Source: a virus
Taxonomy: Duplodnaviria; Heunggongvirae; Uroviricota; Caudoviricetes
Reading direction: 5' to 3' (one strand)
Virus record (IMG/VR): IMGVR_UViG_2737471841_000001
Span: 1 to 29,144 of that record
DNA length: 29,144 nucleotides
Shown here: piece by piece, positions 2,733-25,159 of the stretch
Numbering within the stretch: the first letter of the stretch is position 1
How the letters are laid out: the number at the start of each line of letters is the position of its first letter
Notes under the pieces: generated by a model
What the model was told of the DNA's origin: nothing
The model's database searches: none
The model's input: the letters and a program-made list of their open reading frames with translations, nothing else
Made by a program: the position numbers and the translations under genes

Positions 2733-3047
2733 ATGGACGAATCAAGAAAGCAGTTTGAGGAATACGTTGCCAAAAAATTGAGATTACCATTCGAGATGAT
2801 AACCGAGGCAAGAAATGGTGATAGGTACTTCGCATTTTCAAGCATGGATATTCGTCACTCCTTAAATGAGTGGTGGACTTTATGGCAGGCATCGCGAGCA
2901 GATATTGAAATAACCGCGCCAAAGTTTATCGACAGCAGAGAAGCATTAGCCAAAGGGTTTACCGTTGATTATTCCAATGGCTTCGGTGATGCAATGGATG
3001 CTTATGAGGAAAACATCCGCTCTGCTGGAGTCAAAGTGAAGGAGTAA
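2733..3047 (+). CDS. Hypothetical nin-region protein
   Basis: 104-aa ORF, stop 3 nt before the NinB start; no family recognised. Confidence 0.55.
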   Translation: MDESRKQFEEYVAKKLRLPFEMITEARNGDRYFAFSSMDIRHSLNEWWTLWQASRADIEITAPKFIDSREALAKGFTVDYSNGFGDAMDAYEENIRSAGVKVKE

Positions 3048-3049
3048 CG

Positions 3050-3460
3050 ATGAAGCAAACAATCTTCCTCCGAAGTAAGCAACAACAGCAAGCCGCAATC
3101 AACGCCATCCTCGAAACTCCTCTCGATAAAGACAAGCCAGTCACCATCCGCATTACTGACTACAAGCGCAATCTTGACCAGAACGCAAAATTTCACGCGA
3201 TGCTGGCGGATATCGCTCGTCAGGTTCAATGGTGCGGCAAATGGTTAAAACCGGAACAGTGGAAGGTTTTGTTGATTAGCGGTCATGCAGTGGCAACAAA
3301 ACAGGAAGCTGATGTTTTGCGCGGCCTTGAAGGCGAATTCGTCAACATTCGCGAAAGCAGCGCGCAGATGAGCGTGAAGCGTATGGCAAGTCTGATCGAG
3401 TACACAACAGCCTGGGCTATTGGTCAGGGTGTCAGATTTACCGACAGGAGGTACGAATGA
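3050..3460 (+). CDS. ninB: NinB (Orf-family recombination mediator)
   Basis: 136 aa, resembles lambda NinB as I recall it (e.g. [27 protein letters not shown]); nin-region context. Confidence 0.9.
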
Positions 3461-3639
3461 GACGACAGCGACGAAGTTTCACCGACATCATCTGCGAAAA
3501 CTGCAAATACCTTCCAACGAAACGCTCCAGAAATAAACGCAAGCCAATCCCAAAAGAATCTGACGTAAAAACCTTCAACTACACGGCTCACCTGTGGGAT
3601 ATCCGGTGGCTAAGACATCGTGCGAGGAATACAAGGTGA
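3457..3639 (+). CDS. ninE: NinE
   Basis: 60 aa ([60 protein letters not shown]), matches NinE from memory; ATGA overlap with ninB. Confidence 0.85.
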
Positions 3640-3806
3640 TTGACCCAAATCGAAGTTACGAACAAGAAAGCGTCGAGCGAGCTTTAACGTGCGCTAACTG
3701 CGGTCAGAAGCTGCATGTGCTGGAAGTTCACGTATGTGAGCACTGCTGCGCAGAACTGATGAGCGATCCGAATAGCTCAATGTACGAGGAAGAAGACGAT
3801 GAATGA
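3636..3806 (+). CDS. ninF: NinF (CxxC zinc-ribbon-like)
   Basis: [28 protein letters not shown] motif. Start placed at GTG 3636 (GTGA overlap with ninE stop); the alternative upstream start at 3594 (also GTG) gives 70 aa. Confidence 0.75.
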
Positions 3807-4521
3807 GTTAATAAATGGCAATGCCATCAAAATGACAAGCATTGAAATCGCTGAGTTGGTGGGTAAGCGTCATGACAATGTGAAACGTACCATCGAAACG
3901 CTGGCTAAAAATGGTGTTATCCGGCTTCCTCAAATTGAGGTTTCCGAAAGAATCAATAACTTAGGGTTCAATGTTCAGTACGAGCATTACGTCTTCGAGG
4001 GCGAACAAGGTAAGCGAGACAGTATTGTCGTTGTTGCCCAGTTGTCGCCAGAGTTCACCGCTCGCCTTGTTGACCGTTGGCGAGAGCTTGAAGAAGCTGC
4101 GGTTAATATCCCCAAAACGCTACCGGAAGCGTTGCGCCTTGCTGCTGACCTTGCTGAGCAGAAAATGCAACTGGAAAACCAGCTCGCAATTGCCGCACCT
4201 AAAGTTGAGTTTGCCGATCGCGTTGGCGAGGCCAGCGGAATTTTGATTGGAAACTTTGCAAAGGTTGTTGGAATTGGTCCAAACAAACTGTTTGCGTGGA
4301 TGCGCGATCACAAAATCCTTATTGCTTCAGGTTCCCGGCGCAATGTGCCAATGCAGGAATATATGGATCGCGGCTATTTCGCAGTGAAAGAAACAGCGGT
4401 CAACACAAATCACGGAATACAGATATCGTTCACCACAAAAATCACCGGGCGTGGTCAACAGTGGCTGACCAGAAAGCTGCTCGATAACGGAATGCTGAAA
4501 GTAACCGGGGAGGCTGCTTAA
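3799..4521 (+). CDS. Rha-family phage regulatory protein with KilA-C/antirepressor-like C-terminal domain
   Basis: N-terminal Rha-like signature IEIAELVGKRHDNVKRTIETL; C-terminal region resembles antirepressor KilAC domains. 240 aa. Confidence 0.75.
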   Translation: MNELINGNAIKMTSIEIAELVGKRHDNVKRTIETLAKNGVIRLPQIEVSERINNLGFNVQYEHYVFEGEQGKRDSIVVVAQLSPEFTARLVDRWRELEEAAVNIPKTLPEALRLAADLAEQKMQLENQLAIAAPKVEFADRVGEASGILIGNFAKVVGIGPNKLFAWMRDHKILIASGSRRNVPMQEYMDRGYFAVKETAVNTNHGIQISFTTKITGRGQQWLTRKLLDNGMLKVTGEAA

Positions 4522-8957: not shown

Positions 8958-9452
8958 ATGAATATGGCAGCACCAAAGGGCAACCGATTCTGGGAGGCCC
9001 GCAGTAGTCATGGGCGAAACCCTAAATTCGAATCGCCTGAGGCGCTGTGGGCTGCTTGTTGTGAATACTTCGAGTGGGCTGATGATAACCCGCTATGGGA
9101 GGGTAAGGTATTTTCATATCAGGGAGAAATAATTAAGGCTAATGTCCCTAAGATGCGAGCCATGACTATTTCAGGATTGTGTACCTTCCTTGATATCACC
9201 AGGCAAACATGGGGAACCTTCCGGTCAATGGAAGGTTTTTCTGACGTCACATCACGAGCGGAAGACATCATCTACGACCAGAAATTCTCTGGCGCAGCCG
9301 CTGACCTTCTCAACGCTAACATCATCGCCCGTGATTTGGGCCTCAAAGAGCAGTCGCAAGTTGAAGACGTGACACCTGATAAGGGAGATCGCGATAAGCG
9401 ACGCTCTCGTATCAAGGAGCTATTCAACCGTGGAACTGGACGCGATTCTTGA
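8958..9452 (+). CDS. 3: Terminase small subunit (P22 gp3-like)
   Basis: ~162-164 aa, [23 protein letters not shown]-terminus; immediately upstream of and overlapping the large terminase. Confidence 0.85.
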
Positions 9453-10929
9453 TAACCTGAGCGACGAAGAGCAAATCGAGTTGCTCGAGCTACTCGAAGA
9501 AGAAGAGAACTACCGGAACACACACCTGCTATATGAATTTACGCCATACAGCAAACAGCGTGAGTTCATCGACGCCGGACATGACTACCCAGAGCGATGT
9601 TTTATGGCTGGTAACCAGCTTGGTAAGTCATTTACTGGTGCTGCTGAAGTCGCGTTTCACCTTACAGGGCGTTATCCGGGCACAAAAGGCTATCCTGCTG
9701 ATGGTAAATATGGCGGTGAGTGGAAAGGTAAGCGTTTCTATGAGCCTGTTGTCTTCTGGATTGGTGGCGAGACAAACGAGACTGTAACCAAAACGACTCA
9801 ACGCATCCTGTGCGGTCGTATCGAAGAGAATGATGAGCCTGGCTACGGTTCCATACCGAAAGAAGACATCATTAGCTGGAAGAAGTCTCCTTTCTTTCCG
9901 AACCTTGTTGATCATCTTCTGGTTAAGCATCACACGGCTGATGGCGTTGAAGATGGCATTTCAATCTGCTACTTCAAGCCATACTCGCAAGGCCGTGCTC
10001 GCTGGCAGGGTGACACAATCCACGGCGTGTGGTTTGACGAAGAGCCACCATACAGCATTTATGGCGAAGGTCTTACCCGTACCAACAAATACGGGCAATT
10101 CTCAATTCTGACGTTTACCCCGCTGATGGGGATGTCTGACGTTGTTACCAAGTTCCTGAAGAATCCAAGCAAGTCGCAGAAAGTGGTCAACATGACCATC
10201 TACGACGCTGAGCACTACACAGACGAACAGAAAGAGCAAATCATCGCATCTTATCCTGAGCATGAGAGAGAGGCGCGTGCTCGCGGTATTCCTACGATGG
10301 GTAGCGGTCGAATCTTCCAGATACCGGAAGAGACGATTAAGTGCCAGCCGTTCGAGTGTCCTGATCACTTCTACGTAATTGGCGGGATGGATTTCGGATG
10401 GGATCACCCACAGGCGCAGGTTCAGCTTTGGTGGGATAAGGACGCAGACACAATCTACGTTTCACGCGTGTGGAAGGCGAAAGAAAAAACAGCCGTTCAG
10501 GCGTGGGGAGCTGTTAAATCATGGGCGCATAAAGTGCCAACCGCATGGCCTCATGACGGAAACCAGCACGAGAAGGGCGGCGGTGAGCAGCTCAAAGGGC
10601 AGTATGCGGACGCTGGATTTATGATGTTGCAGGAGCATGCGACATGGCCTGATGGCGGTAATGCTGTTGAGCCTGGAATCACTGAATTGCGCGACATGAT
10701 GCTTGATGGTCGCTTCAAAGTATTCAACACCTGTGAGCCATTCTTTGAGGAGTTCCGCCTCTATCACCGTGATGAAAACGGGAAGATCGTCAAGCTTAAC
10801 GACGACGTTCTCTCAGCCGTTCGCTATGCATACATGATGCGCCGCTTCGCCAAAATGATGCGCGACATCAAAAAACCAAAAGAGAAAAAGATACCAGCCC
10901 CAATCAGGCCCATCGCACGGAGAACTTAA
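9430..10929 (+). CDS. 2: Terminase large subunit (P22 gp2-like)
   Basis: 499 aa, GTG start overlapping terS; Walker A-like GNQLGKS; acidic N-terminus (LELLEEEE); position before portal. Confidence 0.9.
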
Positions 10930-13108: not shown

Positions 13109-14020
13109 ATGGACCAAACCACCGACATTCAGGCTTCTGAAGAATTAACCCTGCCCGGCAATCATGCAGCGGCATCTGCTGATGGCTTAGTTGTCGATAA
13201 TGCCAACGACAACGCAGGTCAGGAAGAAGGCTTCGAGATTGTCCTGAAAGACGATGAGAAACCAAAACAAGACCCGGCAACTAATGCTGAATTTGCCCGT
13301 CGCCGCATCGAACGCAAACGCCAGCGTGAGCTTGAGCAACAGATGGAAGCGGTTAAGCGGGGAGAGTTGCCGGAGCACCTGCGGGTGAACCCTGAGTTAC
13401 CAAAACAACCAGACCCTAACGATTATCTTTCCGAAGACGCACTGGCTAAGTACGACTATGACCAGAGCCGCGCACTGGCTGCCTTCCAGCAGGCAAACAG
13501 TGAATGGCAGATCAAGGCTATGGATGCACGAAGCCAGGCTGTCGCCGAGCAGGGTCGCAAAACTCAGGAGTTCACCCAGCAATCAGCGCAATACGTCGAG
13601 GCAGCCCGTAAGCACTACGACGCAGCGGAAAAGCTCAATATCCCTGACTATCAGGAGAAAGAGGATGCATTCATGCAACTGGTGCCGTCAGCAGTCGGTG
13701 CCGACATTATGCGCCTCTTCCCGGAGAAATCCGCTGCTCTCATGTATCACCTTGGTGCTAATCCTGAGAAAACACGCCAGTTGCTGGCGATGGACGGGCA
13801 ATCCGCGCTGATTGAACTCACTCGACTGTCAGAACGTTTAACTCTCAAGCCTCGAGCCAAACCTGTTTCAGAAGCCCCGCTACCTGATGAACCCATTCAG
13901 GGACACGCTGTTGCTGCAAATATATCTGCGATTGAAAAGCAGATGGAAGCGGCAGCAAACAAAGGGGATGTAGAGACGTACCGCAAGCTTAAGGCGCAAC
14001 TGAATAAAGGAATTCGATAA
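13109..14020 (+). CDS. 8: Scaffolding protein (P22 gp8-like)
   Basis: 303 aa, charged/helical, C-terminal [13 protein letters not shown] coat-binding-like region; between portal and coat. Confidence 0.9.
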
Positions 14021-15315
14021 TGGCATTAAATGAAGGTCAACTGGTCACGTATGCTCTGGATGAAATCATCGAAACCGTCCAGAACCTGACGCCAATGGCG
14101 TCCAAAGTGACAAAATACACCCCTCCGGCAGAATCCATGCAGCGTTCAAGCAACACCGTGTGGATGCCTGTTGAGCAGGAAGCGCCAACCCAGACTGGCT
14201 GGGATTTAACTGGCAACGCAACCGGGATTCTGGAACTCTCCGTGAAGTGCAACATGGGCGATCCGGATAACGATTTCTTCGAGCTTCGTGCAGATGACCT
14301 GCGTGATGAGCGTTCTTACCGTCGCCGCATCCAGGCATCCGCCAAAAAACTGGCGAATAACATTGAGTCAGCGATTGCCAAACAGGCAACTGAAATGGGC
14401 TCGCTTGTTGTTCACGATACCCGCGCAATTGGTCCATCTACTGGCCTGTCTGGCTGGGATTTTGTGTCTGATGCAGAGCGCCTGATGTTCTCCCGTGAGC
14501 TAAACCGCGATATGGGCATCAGTTACTTCCTGAACCCTGACGATTACCGCAAAGCAGGCCGCAACCTGGTAGATGGTGACATCTTCGGTCGCGTTCCTGA
14601 AGAAGCGTATCGCAACGGTACTATTCAGCGTCAGATTGCTGGCTTTGATGAAATTCTTCGCTCACCGAAACTTCCGGCAGTTACCAAGTCAACCGCTACT
14701 GGTGTAACTGTTTCTGGTGCGCAGAAGTTTAAGCCGCAGGCATACACTCTTGATACCGATGGTAACAAAGAGAACGTCGACAACCGTGTTGCAACGGTGA
14801 CCGTATCCTCCACCACCGGATTTAAGCGCGGCGACAAAATCAGTTTCACTGGTGTGAAATTCCTGTCTCAGATGGCGAAGAACGTGCTGACTGATGACGC
14901 GACTTTCTCAATCACCCGTGTGATCGATGGTACTCACATCGAAATCACGCCGAAACCGATTGCACTGGATGACGCGTCACTGACAAAAGAAGAGAAGGCT
15001 TACGCTAACGTAAACACCTCTCTTGCTGATACCACTCCGGTAAACGTTCTGAACGTGGCAACAACCACCGCTAACGTGTTCTGGGCTGATGACTCAATCC
15101 GTCTGCTGTCTCAGCCGATCCCGGTAACCCATGAACTGTTTGCTGGCATGAAAACGTCTTCCTTCAGCATTCCAGGCATTGGTGTTAACGGCATCTTCGC
15201 AACGCAGGGTGATATCAACACTCTGTCTGGTAAGTGCCGTATTGCTGTGTGGTATTCAGCATGTGCTGTACGACCAGAGGCAATTGGTGTTGGTCTGCCT
15301 AACCAGACTGCGTGA
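14020..15315 (+). CDS. 5: Major coat protein (P22 gp5-like)
   Basis: 431 aa, [21 protein letters not shown] ... [11 protein letters not shown]; size and order match P22 coat (about 430 aa from memory). Confidence 0.95.
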
Positions 15316-15596: not shown

Positions 15597-16074
15597 TTTA
15601 GTCCTTGCGGCATTACGTAAGCTCGGTGTGGCATCAAATGCCACGTTAACAGATGTCGAACCGCAGTCTATGGAAGACGGCGTCAACGACCTTGAAATGA
15701 TGATGGCTGAATGGCTTGGCGGTGATGCGTCACCTGGTATCAACGTTGGCTACATTTTTGCTGATGCAGATGTCGCTCCGGATCCGGGCGATGAGCACGG
15801 TTTATCAAATAACGCTATCAATGCCGTCATTTTTAACCTTGCCTGCCGCATTGCTCCAGATTATGCGCTGGAAGCGTCAGCAAAACTTATAACCACTGCC
15901 AGATACGGGAAAGAGCGACTCGTCAAACTGTCTGCAATGGACAGAGCAAAAGCCGCTAAATGTAAGTCCGGTTATCCAAACCGTATGCCTGTTGGTAGCG
16001 GTAACCAGTTGGCGAAGTGGAATGGTTGGAATTACTTCCACCGAAAGGAACCTTGCGATAACGGGAGCGAATAA
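15574..16074 (+). CDS. 4: Head completion / tail accessory factor (P22 gp4-like)
   Basis: 166 aa from ATG 15574 ([33 protein letters not shown]). The ORF track start at 15499 is probably run-in. Confidence 0.85.
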
Positions 16075-16179
16075 ATGCCTATTCAGCAACTTCCGCTTAT
16101 GAAAGGTGTCGGCAAAGACTTCCGAAACGCCGACTATATCGACTATCTGCCAGTGAATATGCTGGCAATTTTGATATAA
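16075..16179 (+). pseudogene. Orphan 5' fragment of gp10 (34 codons), displaced by the HNH gene insertion
   Basis: Starts 1 nt after gp4 stop; MPIQQLPLMKGVGKDFRNADYIDYLPVNMLA then ILI-stop; same N-terminus reappears in diverged form at 16748. Confidence 0.65.
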
Positions 16180-16215
16180 TAAGTACATGAAAAATCGAAA
16201 CTTTAAGGAGTAGAT

Positions 16216-16800
16216 ATGCTTTCTGAGAATGCTAAAGATATACCTGGATTTGAAGGTGTTTATGCCGTAACAGAAGATGGCAGGGTGTATTCTCACTCAC
16301 GTGTTGTTAAGGCTGCGCATGGCAGCACGCAACTCAGAAAGGGGCGCTGGTTAAAGCCTAAAATAAATCAGGGAAGGGTGCTTTATAATATCGGAGCAAA
16401 ATGGACTTTTGCCCATCGAATCGTTGCAATGACATTCCTGCCAAATCCTGAAAACAAGCCTCAGGTAAATCATATTGATGGCAATCCACTCAATAATAAC
16501 GTCAATAATCTTGAGTGGTGCACTCAAAGCGAAAACATCAAACATGCATACGCCACCGGATTAAAGAAACCAATCAAGTTTTTCGGAACCAAGCACCCAA
16601 AACACAAGTTGAGTGATGACGATGTTCTTGCAATCAAGTCATCAAAAGAAAGCTTGTCAGTAATTGCGGCTAAGTACGGGATATCTAAGACCTGGGCAAG
16701 TAGGCTAAAGCGTGATGCTAACTGGGTTCATATAAAGGTTGATTCCAATGGCAATACAACAACTACCACTAATGAAGGGATTGGGGAAAAGTGCGGTTAA
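16216..16800 (+). CDS. Free-standing HNH homing endonuclease (NUMOD4-like N-terminus, HNH core, C-terminal HTH)
   Basis: 194 aa; GFEGVYAVTEDGRVYSH, HRIVAMTF ... VNHIDGNPLNNNVNNLEWCTQSEN (HNH), LSVIAAKYGISKTWASRLKR (HTH). 3' end overlaps the gp10 start. Confidence 0.85.
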   Translation: MLSENAKDIPGFEGVYAVTEDGRVYSHSRVVKAAHGSTQLRKGRWLKPKINQGRVLYNIGAKWTFAHRIVAMTFLPNPENKPQVNHIDGNPLNNNVNNLEWCTQSENIKHAYATGLKKPIKFFGTKHPKHKLSDDDVLAIKSSKESLSVIAAKYGISKTWASRLKRDANWVHIKVDSNGNTTTTTNEGIGEKCG

Positions 16801-18166
16801 TGCTGATTATATAGACCAACTTCCAGTCAATCTTTTAGCTACGTCTAAGGAGGTGTTGAATTCATCGGGATATCTTCGCTCATTCCCGGGCATTGCCAAA
16901 CGTTCTGATGTGAACGGTGTATCGCGCGGCGTCGAGTACAACATGGCGCAGAGTGCTGTTTATCGAGTGTGTGGTAGCAAGTTGTATAAGGGCGAAAGTG
17001 AGGTCGGTGATGTTGCCGGAAGTGGTCGCGTATCAATGGCGCATGGTCGGACATCACAGGCGGTAGGCGTTAATGGTCAACTGGTCGAGTATCGCTATGA
17101 TGGCACGGTTAAAACCGTCTCAAACTGGCCTGCAGACAGTGGATTTACTCAGTATGAGTTAGGTTCAGTCCGCGACATTACGCGCTTACGTGGGCGTTAT
17201 GCGTGGTCAAAAGACGGCACGGATTCATGGTTTATCACTGACCTTGAAGACGAATCGCATCCTGACCGTTACAGCGCACAATATCGCGCAGAATCGCAGC
17301 CGGACGGTATCCTCGGCATCGGAACATGGCGAGACTTCATCGTCTGCTTTGGTTCATCGACGATTGAATATTTTTCCCTGACTGGGGCAACTACCGTTGG
17401 TGCCGCTTTGTATGTCGCACAGCCATCACTGATGGTGCAGAAAGGCATTGCCGGAACTTACTGCAAAACGCCGTTTGCTGATTCCTATGCGTTTATCAGC
17501 AATCCGGCAACAGGTGCTCCGTCTGTATACATCATCGGCTCCGGTCAGGTATCACCAATCGCCAGCGCGAGCATTGAGAAAATCCTCCGCTCCTACACTG
17601 CTGATGAACTGGCTGATGGTGTGATGGAATCGTTGCGGTTTGATGCTCATGAGTTGCTGATTATCCATCTTTCGCGTCACGTCCTTGTGTACGACGCATC
17701 TTCAAGCGCCAATGGTCCGCAATGGTGTGTGCTGAAAACAGGCCTGTATGACGATGTGTACCGCGCTATCGACTTCATTTACGAAGGCAATCAGATAACG
17801 TGCGGCGATAAGCTGGAGTCCGTGACCGGGGAATTGCAGTTCGATATATCTTCACAATACGAAAAACAACAAGAGCATATTTTATATTCCCCTCTAATAA
17901 AGGCTGATAACGTTTTAATAAATGACCTTGAATTAGAAACATCTGGCGGCGTGTGTGATAGAATAGATAGAATATTTATATCAGCCACTACAGATGGAAT
18001 TAATTACGGTCGTGAGCAAATGGTTGTATTACAAAAACCATTTGTATATGACAATCGCGTTTTATGGCGAAAGGTTGGTCGAGTTAGACGCCTCATTGGA
18101 TTTAAATTCAGAGTTATTGCAAAAGGTCCTGTCACATTATCAGGCCTTTCTATTCGTGTAACATAA
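16748..18166 (+). CDS. 10: Tail hub / tail accessory protein (P22 gp10-like)
   Basis: 472 aa from ATG 16748 (MAIQQLPLMKGLGK...); the track start at 16739 is TTG. Position and length match P22 gp10. Confidence 0.9.
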   Translation: MAIQQLPLMKGLGKSAVNADYIDQLPVNLLATSKEVLNSSGYLRSFPGIAKRSDVNGVSRGVEYNMAQSAVYRVCGSKLYKGESEVGDVAGSGRVSMAHGRTSQAVGVNGQLVEYRYDGTVKTVSNWPADSGFTQYELGSVRDITRLRGRYAWSKDGTDSWFITDLEDESHPDRYSAQYRAESQPDGILGIGTWRDFIVCFGSSTIEYFSLTGATTVGAALYVAQPSLMVQKGIAGTYCKTPFADSYAFISNPATGAPSVYIIGSGQVSPIASASIEKILRSYTADELADGVMESLRFDAHELLIIHLSRHVLVYDASSSANGPQWCVLKTGLYDDVYRAIDFIYEGNQITCGDKLESVTGELQFDISSQYEKQQEHILYSPLIKADNVLINDLELETSGGVCDRIDRIFISATTDGINYGREQMVVLQKPFVYDNRVLWRKVGRVRRLIGFKFRVIAKGPVTLSGLSIRVT

Positions 18167-18187
18167 ATCGAAACTTAAGGAGTAGAT

Positions 18188-18721
18188 ATGTTAAGTGAAA
18201 ACGCAAAAGATATCGAAGGATATGAAGGACTGTACGCCATCACTAATGATGGTAGAGTTTACTCGCATTCAAGAGTAAATTTGAGGGGACGTCTTATTAA
18301 GGGGAGGTGGCTGAAGCATAATCATAACGTAAATGGATATAAGTATGTGTGTTTATATAAGGATGGCGTAAAAAAGAACATACTAATACATAAGCTTGTT
18401 GCATCTCACTTTGTTGGTGGATTTGCTGAAGGGTTACAGGTTAACCATATAGATGGTGATAAATATAATAATAACTATCTAAATCTTGAATGGGTTACTC
18501 CATCAGGAAATATCTCACACTCATATGGATTGGAATCGCGAGGTAATGTTAAAGGAGAAAGGAATGGTAATTCTAAAATATCTAATGATGATGTCATAAA
18601 GATAAAAGAAATGGTTGCCAATGGATTTCCTCAGTGTGAAGTTGCTAAATTATTTGGAATTCACAATTCAAAGGTTAGTAGAATTGTAAATGGCAAGGCA
18701 TGGAGGCATGTGAATGGCTGA
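18188..18721 (+). CDS. Free-standing HNH homing endonuclease (paralog of 16216..16800)
   Basis: 177 aa; N-terminus [30 protein letters not shown] nearly identical to the first HNH protein; HKLVASHF ... [20 protein letters not shown]; C-terminal HTH; AT-rich. Confidence 0.85.
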
Positions 18722-19562
18722 TTCGAATCTCAATGAGCCGGTAACAATTCAGGCTGCGCGCCTTGATGCTTCAATTTTGCCACGCAATATATTCAGCCAG
18801 TCTTACCTGCTGTATGTCATAAATCAGGGTGCTGATGTTGGCGCAATTGCCGGGAAGGCAAATCAGGCTGGTCAGGGCGCTTATGACGCACAAGTCAGGA
18901 ACGATGAGCAGGATGTGATTCTCGCTGACCATGAGCAGCGAATTTCTGCTGCGGAAGCAACGCTTGTTAATCATGAGGAGAGAATCAGCCAGGCAGAATC
19001 AACTCTTCAGGAACATGAAACGCGAATCGCTCAGAATGAAAGCGATATTGCGTCGCTTGATACCAGAGTTCAGTCGCTGGAGTCGCAGGTTTCAGACCAT
19101 GAATCGCGCATCGATGCTCTGGAGTATGCCACTACTCGCAAGAAGTCAGAGGTTGTTTACTCTGGCGTATCAGTAACCATCCCGACAGCGCCGACCAACC
19201 TTGTTAGCCTGCTGAAAACGCTCACGCCGTCATCCGGCTCGTTGGCACCATTCTTCGACACCGTTAACAACAAGATGGTTGTGTTCAACGAGAACAAAAC
19301 CTTGTTCTTCAAGCTGTCGATTGTCGGGACGTGGCCCAGCGGAACCGCCAACAGGTCAATGCAGCTAACATTTTCCGGTTCTGTTCCTGACACACTGGTA
19401 AGCAGTCGCAACTCGGCGACAACAACCGATAACATCTTGTTAGCTACGTTCTTCAGCGTGGATAAAGACGGCTTTCTTGCCACAAATGGCAGCACGTTAA
19501 CCATTCAGTCAAATGGTGCGGCGTTTACTGCCACAACCATCAAAATAATTGCGGAGCAGTGA
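18714..19562 (+). CDS. 26: Tail needle (P22 gp26 family) with coiled-coil repeats and a distinct C-terminal domain
   Basis: 282 aa; N-terminal ~60 aa resembles gp26 ([41 protein letters not shown]); tandem ~14-residue HE-RI repeats; C-terminal ~140 aa unrelated to P22 gp26. Confidence 0.85.
18931..19120 (+). repeat. Imperfect ~42-nt tandem repeats encoding the tail-needle coiled coil
   Basis: Repeated units beginning CATGAGCAGCGAATT / CATGAGGAGAGAATC / CATGAAACGCGAATC / CATGAATCGCGCATC, i.e. HEQRIS / HEERIS / HETRIA / HESRID. Confidence 0.6.
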
Positions 19563-24303: not shown

Positions 24304-24789
24304 TTATCTAATGTTGCTGCTACTGTTGCATGTTACCGTGTTTCCAAATCCTGAATTGCAGTTTGTATATGTGTCAACGCGTGTTGGGTAAGGTTGAGTT
24401 ATAACAGGCTGGCGCGCTTTTTGCTCGATCGCTTGCATTGTGTTTACAGCCTGATAATTCAATAAAGCCTGCTGGAATGCTTGGCTTTGTGCTATTTGTT
24501 GGGCTTGTTCTTGGCTTTGTAATTGAACATAAAGATTCTGAAGCTCAAGTCTTGCCTGTGCGTCACTTATCTTGCCTTCATCGACACCTTGCCCGAGCAT
24601 CTTTGCAGCAAGGACATACAGCTTAGGTGTTGGTGCTGATGCCATGCGTGAGTCGTTCTTCACACTGGCATCAAGGCAATTAGCCATATCGCTAAGCTTT
24701 TGATAGCGTTGTTCGCAACTTGCTTGATAGTCACTTACTTTTGCGCATCCAACCAGCAGAAGCGGGATAATTAACAGTGATTTTTTCAT
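24304..24789 (-). CDS. Secreted lipoprotein of unknown function (candidate lysogeny-expressed moron)
   Basis: 161 aa from ATG 24789 (AAGGAG 9 nt upstream); signal peptide with lipobox MKKSLLIIPLLLVGC; four further Cys; Gln-rich helical middle. Confidence 0.7.
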   Translation of the reverse strand: MKKSLLIIPLLLVGCAKVSDYQASCEQRYQKLSDMANCLDASVKNDSRMASAPTPKLYVLAAKMLGQGVDEGKISDAQARLELQNLYVQLQSQEQAQQIAQSQAFQQALLNYQAVNTMQAIEQKARQPVITQPYPTRVDTYTNCNSGFGNTVTCNSSSNIR

Positions 24790-24859
24790 ATGGTTAACTC
24801 TCCTTAGTTTTTCACAGGATATCATGAAAGCAATGCCATTTTAGCCGGAAACTAGATTT

Positions 24860-25159
24860 CTATGTTTCCTTTTTATTATTGCTATACATGGTCTTAAGCG
24901 TTTCAAAAACCATTTTCTTAACCATATCAGATTGTTGTTCTGCCATACGCTCTGCATCGTCAATGTAAACTGATGCAGAGCTTTGTTTAGCCAATGATTC
25001 TTCAATCGCTGCAATTATCTCTGAGTTCAGCGACCTGTTATTCATCTTCGCGCGCTGTTTAATTTTCGCGTGGAGTTCATGCGGAAGTCTCAAGTGAAAC
25101 TGCGCCTCGTCGTATTTGCTGTACATCCTTGATGCCTCACCAGTTGGGTGGAATGGCAT
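24860..25159 (-). CDS. mnt: Mnt-like ribbon-helix-helix (Arc/MetJ family) repressor
   Basis: RLPHELHAKIKQRAKMNNRSLNSEIIAAIEESL ... DDAERMAEQQSDMVKKMVFETLK resembles P22 Mnt; start may be the internal ATG at 25126. Confidence 0.8.
   Translation of the reverse strand: MPFHPTGEASRMYSKYDEAQFHLRLPHELHAKIKQRAKMNNRSLNSEIIAAIEESLAKQSSASVYIDDAERMAEQQSDMVKKMVFETLKTMYSNNKKET

Follow-up and report, generated by a model that had tools for sequence, protein, structure and literature searches.

Why does gp10, a gene for an essential virion protein, become abruptly AT-rich towards its 3' end, and is this connected with the endonuclease gene that follows it? The question is raised by the virus record IMGVR_UViG_2737471841_000001, of which 29,144 nucleotides (nt), referred to here as the window, were analyzed. 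The window represents the late region of a P22/Sf6-like (Lederbergvirus) phage or prophage, and its best nucleotide matches are the E. coli/Shigella phages Louie, HZ41, Kapi1 and Sf6, at 92-95%. Its gp10 is a mosaic of a recoded 5' piece, a native-type body and a tail of a different, AT-rich type (AT-type tail), and in the genomes inspected this tail co-occurs with an HNH-family endonuclease gene, HNH-2 in the window. The best explanation, which we hold to be likely, is intronless homing with obligatory co-conversion of the AT-type tail and the HNH gene. The features on which the argument rests are the following:

16748-18166, plus strand: gp10, packaged-DNA stabilisation / tail hub protein of 472 amino acids (Pfam PF11134 over the full length, 919 bits)
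16868-17847, plus strand: native-type gp10 body, codons 41-366 (from identities in 60-nt bins and composition)
17848-18166, plus strand: AT-type gp10 tail, the last 106 codons (from alignments, composition statistics and junction classes)
17832-18692, no strand: low-GC block, GC 0.343 (from maximum-likelihood change points), spanning the gp10 tail, the leader and HNH-2
17879-17904, plus strand: hypothetical recognition core of the endonuclease in native alleles (from the overlap of two recombinant structures described below)
18167-18187, plus strand: conserved leader with Shine-Dalgarno sequence, ATCGAAACTTAAGGAGTAGAT, common to all three HNH clades found at this position
18188-18721, plus strand: HNH-2, free-standing I-HmuI-like endonuclease gene, 177 amino acids, GC 0.35 (from Pfam, PHROG 59 and 1U3E matches)
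18714-19562, plus strand: gp26, tail needle with Sf6-type knob (from Pfam and alignment)

In regard to base composition, the G+C content (GC) in 200-nt sliding windows amounts to 0.49-0.53 over 16900-17800, falls to 0.335-0.385 over 17800-18700 and returns to about 0.50 beyond. A two-change-point maximum-likelihood fit on 16950-19500 placed the changes at 17832 (2-log-likelihood support 17828-17862) and 18692 (18673-18737), separating GC values of 0.517, 0.343 and 0.504 with a log-likelihood ratio of 33 (nominal p ~1.6e-13), and the resulting low-GC block covers the last 106 codons of gp10 plus HNH-2. The interval 17830-18166 has a GC of 0.353; just 1% of the 337-bp windows in the 29-kb sequence are equally low, and they belong either to the same block or to the Mnt/Arc region near 24.6-25.1 kb. 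GC at third codon positions (GC3) drops from 170/326 (0.52) in the gp10 body to 22/106 (0.21) in the tail (Fisher p = 1.1e-8), and in 30-codon bins from 0.47-0.67 to 0.19-0.37, with the switch at 17819. The likelihood of the tail under HNH compared to late-gene codon usage (-130/-124 vs -133) weakly favored the former, on a sample too small to count, and GC3 is the robust compositional signal. The GC of the tail (0.351) is indistinguishable from that of HNH-2 (0.352). At the same time, the Pfam family Phage_stabilise covers gp10 residues 7-474 end to end, with 919 bits.

The compositional break coincides with a break in homology. When aligned with Sf6, Louie and UPF_BP1, relatives free of an HNH gene at the gp10/gp26 junction, and with other carriers, the window shows 88-100% nucleotide identity to native alleles per 60-nt bin over 16868-17827 (~95%), and 47-73% (~55%) from 17848 to the stop codon. 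The collapse at 17847/17848 lies ~15 nt from the GC change point. At the protein level, the gp10 body is 98% identical to those of Sf6, Louie and UPF_BP1, the tail is 64% identical to that of Sf6, and AT-type and native tails in general share 64-66% of their residues. Native tails have a GC of 0.49-0.51 and a GC3 of 0.58-0.61, whereas HNH-linked tails have 0.34-0.36 and 0.18-0.25; the body has a GC of 0.52 in all aligned alleles, native and HNH-linked alike. The initial annotation had reported an abrupt AT-rich shift over the last ~110 codons of gp10, at 17830-18166, and the GC plot does show this discontinuity, with a sharp boundary confined within ~30 nt and coordinates correct to within ~20 nt. 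The 106 codons found agree with its count, while its description of the segment as the 3' third of the gene was too generous, since they make up 22% of it. Its further statements, that the segment matches HNH-2 in composition and that the protein stays gp10-like, are borne out by the nearly equal GC values and by the end-to-end Phage_stabilise match.

The tail and the HNH gene are tightly associated. A stretch holding the tail and the first 50 nt of the HNH gene was found in 56 of 5,426 complete E. coli genomes, always in the chromosome and in P22-like prophages, which corresponds to 56 of the ~860 E. coli records with a P22-like gp10. An annotated NUMOD4/HNH gene underlies the match in 53 of these carriers, and in the other three IS1A or IS3 is placed between gp10 and a still-present HNH gene. 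A tail-anchored sample drew 111 loci from phages, E. coli, GTDB representatives and IMG/VR. An HNH gene, starting 22 nt past the gp10 stop or displaced by an insertion sequence (IS), follows each of the 36 AT-type tails (at least 89% amino acid identity, GC at most 0.39) and none of the 75 native tails (at most 70% identity and GC 0.43-0.56, together with one Arsenophonus gp10 whose whole length is AT-rich). The reverse search of IMG/VR, performed with the three endonuclease proteins as queries, gave the same picture, as an AT-type tail precedes 28 of 28 HNH genes located between gp10 and gp26, and further carriers, five to six in metagenomes and one in ENA, agree. Neither a full AT-type tail without the HNH gene nor a native tail with it occurred in the E. 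coli, 111-locus or IMG/VR sets. An AT-rich gp10 end in relatives lacking the HNH gene had been named in the initial annotation as evidence that would speak against it, and these counts include none. The nominal Fisher p for the association is ~1e-30, which overstates the evidence because the loci are phylogenetically non-independent.

The arrangement of the site is equally regular. In Sf6, Louie, UPF_BP1 and the 75 native loci the empty site reads TAATG, in which the stop codon of gp10 runs into the start codon of gp26. In carriers, the AT-type tail is followed by a leader of 21 nt containing AAGGAG and then by the HNH gene, and in all of them the insert ends exactly at the gp26 ATG. The last HNH codons (WRHVNG and the stop) overlap the gp26 start, in HNH-2 by the last 8 nt.

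As a separate observation, IS1A and an IS3-family element were found at the very start of the HNH gene in independent prophages, where they separate it from gp10, at 2865-3562 of locus L006 (E. coli M160133) and at 2908-4136 of locus L007 (E. coli ETEC6333, also ETEC6334). Such elements may insert preferentially into the AT-rich cassette; alternatively, prophages may tolerate, or even be selected for, loss of the nuclease.

The AT-type tail is found in very different backgrounds. Tails of this type (84-100% amino acid identity) sit on gp10 bodies that are 68-100% identical in protein to that of the window, with a body GC of 0.49-0.57. Body identity is 68% in L065/L211, 79% in L212, 87% in L061/L146/L220 and 92-100% in the other carriers; the value of 68% was obtained by tblastn, the ungapped nucleotide comparison of the L065 body being unreliable because of indels. 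In the carriers with diverged bodies, the GC of the tail (0.35-0.42) tracks that of the HNH gene (0.35-0.42) and not that of the body, and a near-constant tail (97-100% in nucleotides) is joined to bodies differing by 5-45%. Carriers also differ in their gp4, coat and gp26 types, the latter comprising needles of 233, 282 and 317 amino acids and both gp26 5' alleles. Since the tail occurs with every gp26 type, it does not co-vary with this structural partner.

The two allele types of the gp26 5' part (18730-18860) group the window, HZ41 and SMN013 on one side, and Sf6, Louie, UPF_BP1, EcK56, A39 and STEC346 on the other. They are independent of HNH status, which suggests that another recombination boundary lies immediately 3' of the cassette.

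The left border of the cassette was resolved into two classes, both lying in coding homology of gp10. In class I, present in the window, in all members of endonuclease clade A and in some of clade B (the clades are described below), AT-type sequence begins at gp10 nt 1101, which is 17848 of the window. In class II, it begins at gp10 nt 1132, or 17879, between GAACAT and ATTTTAT, and the intervening 31 nt match the local native variant. A single partial exception to the linkage was found in locus L067 (IMGVR_UViG_2703718772_000030; 3000-3064), where an HNH-less gp10 carries a 57-nt AT-type patch corresponding to 17848-17904 and identical to the window, and reverts to native sequence at a conserved GATAACG. 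This structure is either a short conversion tract formed without acquisition of the endonuclease or a loss recombinant, and being a recombinant, it fits the homing model. Neither the native loci nor the 5,426 E. coli genomes contained a further partial tract. Positions 17879-17904 (in native alleles CTGCTGTTTACTCCRYTGTTCAAAGC, here ATTTTATATTCCCCTCTAATAAAGGC), where the class II tail and the L067 patch overlap, could represent the recognition core of the endonuclease.

Divergence within the tail points to its considerable age. Among themselves, AT-type tail variants differ with a synonymous divergence (dS) of 0.1-1.9 and a ratio of nonsynonymous to synonymous divergence (dN/dS) of 0.04-0.075, which marks the tail as functional coding sequence of an old lineage that has remained AT-rich all along. 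Between AT-type and native tails, synonymous sites are saturated, compared to a dS of ~0.25 in the adjoining body, and codon identity at conserved residues (28-37%) equals the expectation of shuffling codons within amino acids; two controls in the latter analysis, L223 and L224, were out of register and uninformative. Directed recoding of the tail, considered because of a Nei-Gojobori proportion of synonymous differences (pS) of 0.96, was rejected because codon identity fits the shuffle expectation, as it likewise does in the Arsenophonus tail. The AT-rich codon usage shows that the tail has long resided in an AT-rich context like that of the endonuclease gene and did not arise in this genome. 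The tail replacement is thus not specific to the window, and constitutes an old allele class circulating among P22-like phages.

HNH-2 itself has the architecture of a homing enzyme. It contains NUMOD4 (E = 5e-13) and HNH_3 (E = 5e-10) domains together with a weak HTH_23/HTH_38 match at residues 129-168, it matches PHROG 59 'HNH endonuclease' (2e-49), and it aligns over its full length with I-HmuI (1U3E, E = 8e-21), with the catalytic HNH His/Asn positions conserved. The gene is free-standing, as gp10 ends with TAA at 18164-18166 and HNH-2 has its own Shine-Dalgarno sequence and an ATG 22 nt later. A search of 15800-19000 for group I/II introns and other Rfam families gave no match even at E <= 1, and the HNH-2 reading frame is not enclosed in an intron or intein as in intron- or intein-encoded endonucleases. 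The locus combines several of the features that define a homing cassette: an intact enzyme of a homing family, sporadic presence at one precise site, and a co-inherited flank with breakpoints in homology.

Three endonuclease clades were found at the gp10/gp26 position, A (HNH-2, 177 amino acids), B (HZ41 type, 181 amino acids) and C (PEC011/L065 type, 181 amino acids), with examples at 18188-18721 of the window, at 3889-4431 of L002, at 2823-3365 of L037, and in L065/L211. Together with HNH-1, a second endonuclease gene at the 5' end of gp10, they are mutually 44-57% identical. Common to clades A, B and C are ~30 codons at the start of the gene, 6 codons at its end and the leader, which with one extra T also precedes HNH-1. 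Such conserved ends suggest that the enzyme gene has been repeatedly replaced by recombination through them. Within clade C, tail and enzyme co-diverge. More distant relatives of the HNH proteins, at 30-50% identity, are present in many unrelated viral contigs of IMG/VR (L120-L132, L175-L181, L182-L208), among which L175-L181 form a tight group with 47-50% identity and no gp10 nearby.

According to the homing model, when two phages infect the same cell, or when a phage enters a lysogen, the endonuclease would cut or nick the HNH-less allele, either somewhere in the native 3' part of gp10 or where gp10 meets gp26. The break would then be resected and repaired from the HNH-carrying genome, and strand exchange would resolve to the left within the gp10 body and to the right within gp26. 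As native and AT-type tails are ~55% identical and exchange is possible only where homology resumes, the whole tail would always be copied together with the HNH gene. The diverged tail probably also renders the carrier allele resistant to its own enzyme. What the sequences document is the mosaic with its breakpoints, the two-way association, the spread over diverged backgrounds, the intact enzyme architecture and the purifying selection on the tail; that the native allele is cut, that the AT-type allele resists, that transfer proceeds by break repair and that inheritance is biased are inferences of the model.

Several observations weigh against this model, the first being the lack of a source. 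A donor lineage, that is, a gp10 AT-rich throughout and with a close tail, was not found in any of the collections searched. A tblastn search with the tail in 50,697 phage records recovered HZ41 only, followed by matches of at most 69%, and the best match in 185,579 GTDB species representatives had 68% amino acid identity. In IMG/VR, and in metagenomes searched with the most divergent AT-type tail as a seed, every AT-type tail was on a GC-normal body, and a set of 5.8 billion proteins gave 14 fragments only and no donor. In addition, the tails of clades A and B differ by ~3.7% in nucleotides and their HNH genes by ~43%; such a near-constant tail means that tail and enzyme did not simply co-diverge, and that the model needs enzyme replacement. 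Most carriers are prophages, and common ancestry, instead of repeated transfer, could account for part of the association. Finally, hitchhiking should lower gp10-body diversity beside the junction in carriers, and no such reduction was seen (0.05-0.08 in carriers and 0.04-0.07 in non-carriers, with divergence between the groups equal to that within them). The absence of this recent-sweep signature indicates that the polymorphism is old. The gp10 body is fully unlinked from the cassette, and exchange resolves within ~60 nt of the junction. The initial annotation had proposed that the 3' end was replaced along with the endonuclease gene by a donor of different base composition. Of this proposal, co-inheritance of the two is upheld by the association in both directions, and the donor, not having been found, is still deduced from composition.

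Two donor candidates were rejected. The gp10 of an Arsenophonus metagenome-assembled genome (L035, GC 0.34), the one gp10 in the GTDB representatives that is AT-rich throughout, is just 57% identical. A tail fragment that seemed to be an intermediate at 76% identity (P0003) comes from a frameshift-ridden assembly which also carries the HNH gene. Its source, L133 (ENA ERZ1759873 contig_137), is P22-like, with portal, gp10, gp7 and gp20 each split into several open reading frames (ORFs), and it is most likely an error-prone long-read assembly.

Comparable systems are known, although no prior description of this gp10-tail/HNH linkage was found in the searchable literature. The Seg and Mob enzymes of T-even phages have cut sites hundreds of bp away from their own genes, and the DNA between gene and cut is co-converted, resulting in localised 'marker exclusion' (PMC2988022; PMC2790892). 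As in these systems, HNH-2 is a free-standing gene between two conserved genes, present or absent among syntenic relatives; by analogy, its cut site would be expected in the neighboring essential gene, and like HNH-2, MobE is an HNH enzyme. On the other hand, the host is here a temperate P22-like podovirus and not a T4-like myovirus, the flank is a saturated, compositionally foreign allele of 290-320 nt (~55% identity) rather than a handful of polymorphisms, and cleavage and biased inheritance are predictions here.

Further counterparts are I-HmuI and I-HmuII of the Bacillus phages SPO1 and SP82; I-HmuI shares with HNH-2 the NUMOD4 N-terminal DNA-binding sheet, the HNH core and the C-terminal helix-turn-helix (HTH). 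I-HmuI is encoded in a group I intron of the DNA polymerase gene, whereas HNH-2 is free-standing with its own Shine-Dalgarno sequence. Enzymes of the I-HmuI type are nickases that give flanking markers a selective advantage, an effect reportedly described by Goodrich-Blair and Shub in 1996. As for different endonuclease genes at one intergenic position, Sandegren et al. are said to have found in 2005 that SegH and Hef replace MobC and MobE at the same loci in T4-related phages. Likewise, three HNH clades are found here behind the same tail, with the difference that the replacing genes are distant paralogues of one family sharing ends and leader.

A related structure is present at the other end of gp10, with the following features:

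16075-16179, plus strand: native gp10 5' stub upstream of HNH-1, with 31 native codons (MPIQQLPLMKGVGKDFRNADYIDYLPVNMLA), then ILI and a stop
16216-16800, plus strand: HNH-1, NUMOD4/HNH endonuclease gene inserted inside the gp10 5' end
16748-16867, plus strand: recoded, AT-richer copy of gp10 codons 1-40 (from identity and composition)

The stub directly follows the gp4 stop and is succeeded by the leader motif, HNH-1 and the recoded gp10 start, which overlaps the last 53 nt of HNH-1 in another frame. The functional gp10 start is the ATG at 16748, aligned with the Sf6 and Louie gp10 start, and not the TTG at 16739. The recoded codons have 58-62% nucleotide and 78% amino acid identity to native ones and a GC of 0.40-0.46, and they were seen only together with HNH-1; beyond 16867, ~95% identity to native alleles resumes. 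The C-terminal extension of 17 amino acids by which HNH-1 differs from the clades at the 3' position results from reading into the recoded piece. The stub is annotated as a gp10 pseudogene in E. coli K56-43-un and is present in all 26 IMG/VR loci with HNH-1 only. The complete 5' cassette was found in 18 E. coli genomes, in phage UPF_BP1 and in these 26 IMG/VR loci with a native 3' tail, and most carriers of the 3' cassette are without HNH-1; the 26 loci demonstrate that the two cassettes are independent. As gp10 codons ~32-40 are the sole native sequence missing in carriers, they are a candidate target of HNH-1. The initial annotation had regarded both gp10 ends as donor-derived. This agrees with 5' codons 1-40 being ~60% identical to native ones and found only with HNH-1, with the reservation that the 5' architecture is different, since a native stub is kept there.

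Endonuclease genes at both ends of an essential gene resemble the 'HEG islands' of Barth, Dunham and Seed 2023, in which nuclease genes are located at genetic-exchange boundaries (HEG, homing endonuclease gene; PMC10055350). HNH-1 (16216-16800) and HNH-2 (18188-18721) do bracket the essential gp10, a leftover gene fragment lies beside one endonuclease, endonucleases at the same position are interchangeable, and their genes coincide with recombination boundaries. However, the gp10 body is not specially conserved among carriers and the cassettes occur independently, so there is no cargo moving as a unit. The arrangement is that of a small, separate cassette at either end of gp10, and not of a single mobile island.

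Among the alternatives to plain homing, the one that survives best, and which we regard as possible but clearly less probable, is that the tail is an integral cleavage-resistant rescue module, in which case the element would cut the native essential gene and bring its replacement, a natural counterpart of engineered cleave-and-rescue drives. This would cover the recoded gp10 start at HNH-1 as well, the module would be the stable core with the nuclease swapped among at least three distant clades, and the overlap between class II and L067 would mark the target, native gp10 codons ~378-386. Such a module is consistent with one tail and leader serving three HNH clades that are 44-57% identical, with the parallel 5' design, where the recoded start and the HNH-1 ORF overlap and the native start survives as a dead stub, with a linkage broken in just 1 of ~75 native loci, and only partially, and with co-divergence of tail and enzyme in clade C. 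Yet lack of homology alone explains the linkage, codon identity is that of plain saturation with no sign of selected maximal recoding, and protection of the carrier allele by target-site polymorphism is already recognised in intronless homing, reportedly from the work on SegF and SegG.

It is improbable, and largely refuted, that the locus results from ordinary modular mosaicism, the gp10 C-terminal segment having been swapped to match the gp26 needle or the tailspike, with the HNH gene nearby by chance. P22-like phages are indeed highly mosaic, and gp26 has two 5' allele types and three length classes here, but the AT-type tail was found with every gp26 type and both 5' alleles, its presence and that of the HNH gene coincide perfectly, whichever of the two is searched for, and the composition of the tail matches the HNH gene and no phage structural gene.

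There is likewise little probability that HNH-2 is a domesticated accessory nuclease, acting in packaging or against competitors or satellites, and that the AT-rich block is a moron gained in one illegitimate acquisition. HNH proteins are known in some phage packaging machines, as reportedly described by Kala et al. in 2014, and HEG-derived domains are reported to act in conflicts between phages and satellites (PMC10055350). HNH-2, however, lies between the tail genes gp10 and gp26, 7 kb from the terminase, is sporadic (the 56 of ~860 E. coli records mentioned above), and belongs to the I-HmuI-like NUMOD4/HNH_3 class with a sequence-reading HTH; in position, conservation and domain class it thus differs from packaging-associated, HK97 gp74-like HNH proteins, which are encoded beside the terminase and portal genes of cos phages and occur in all members. 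Both junctions are in homologous coding sequence, with no illegitimate join, and the presence of the gene on gp10 bodies of 68-100% identity is incompatible with a single acquisition. Compositional drift in situ, through relaxed codon selection or embedded regulatory signals and without any transfer, is refuted: AT-rich upstream DNA can hold promoter-like signals and the tail is directly upstream of HNH-2, but the boundary is abrupt, within ~30 nt, synonymous sites are saturated in the tail against a dS of ~0.25 in the body, the same tail occurs on bodies differing by 5-45%, and purifying selection on it is strong.

Understood as homing, the locus bears the clear, if ordinary, marks of a selfish homing gene that carries flanking DNA along; the principle is a textbook one, and no new kind of system is involved. 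Its value lies in being a clean natural example, in many genomes, of a selfish endonuclease reshaping an essential virion gene in temperate enterobacterial phages. The junctions are resolved to the base pair, the empty site is unambiguous, one rare recombinant retains part of the tract, and the three clades behind a single flank are interchangeable. To the annotation of P22-like prophages the locus contributes an explanation of the aberrant 3' or 5' ends of some gp10 genes and of the small 'gp10 pseudogene', and it calls for caution, since gp10-based phylogenies and recombination scans are distorted at the cassette regions. With the genetics of Sf6, HK620 and P22 and a candidate target region, it also offers a tractable system for intronless homing outside the T4 group.

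The remaining genes of the window follow the order terminase, portal, scaffold, coat, gp4, HNH-1, gp10, HNH-2, gp26, gp14, gp7, gp20, gp16, Mnt/Arc region, tailspike and integrase, with these positions upstream of gp10:

8958-10929: terminase
13109-14020: scaffold
14020-15315: coat
end at 16074: gp4

A second low-GC patch of the window is located between gp16 and the tailspike, at 24304-25159 on the minus strand, with GC below 0.40 around 24609-25118. The patch contains the gene of an Arc/Mnt-like repressor (24860-25159) as well as, at 24304-24825, an ORF of 173 amino acids without a Pfam match, and represents an immI-like accessory region that has no relation to the gp10 tail.

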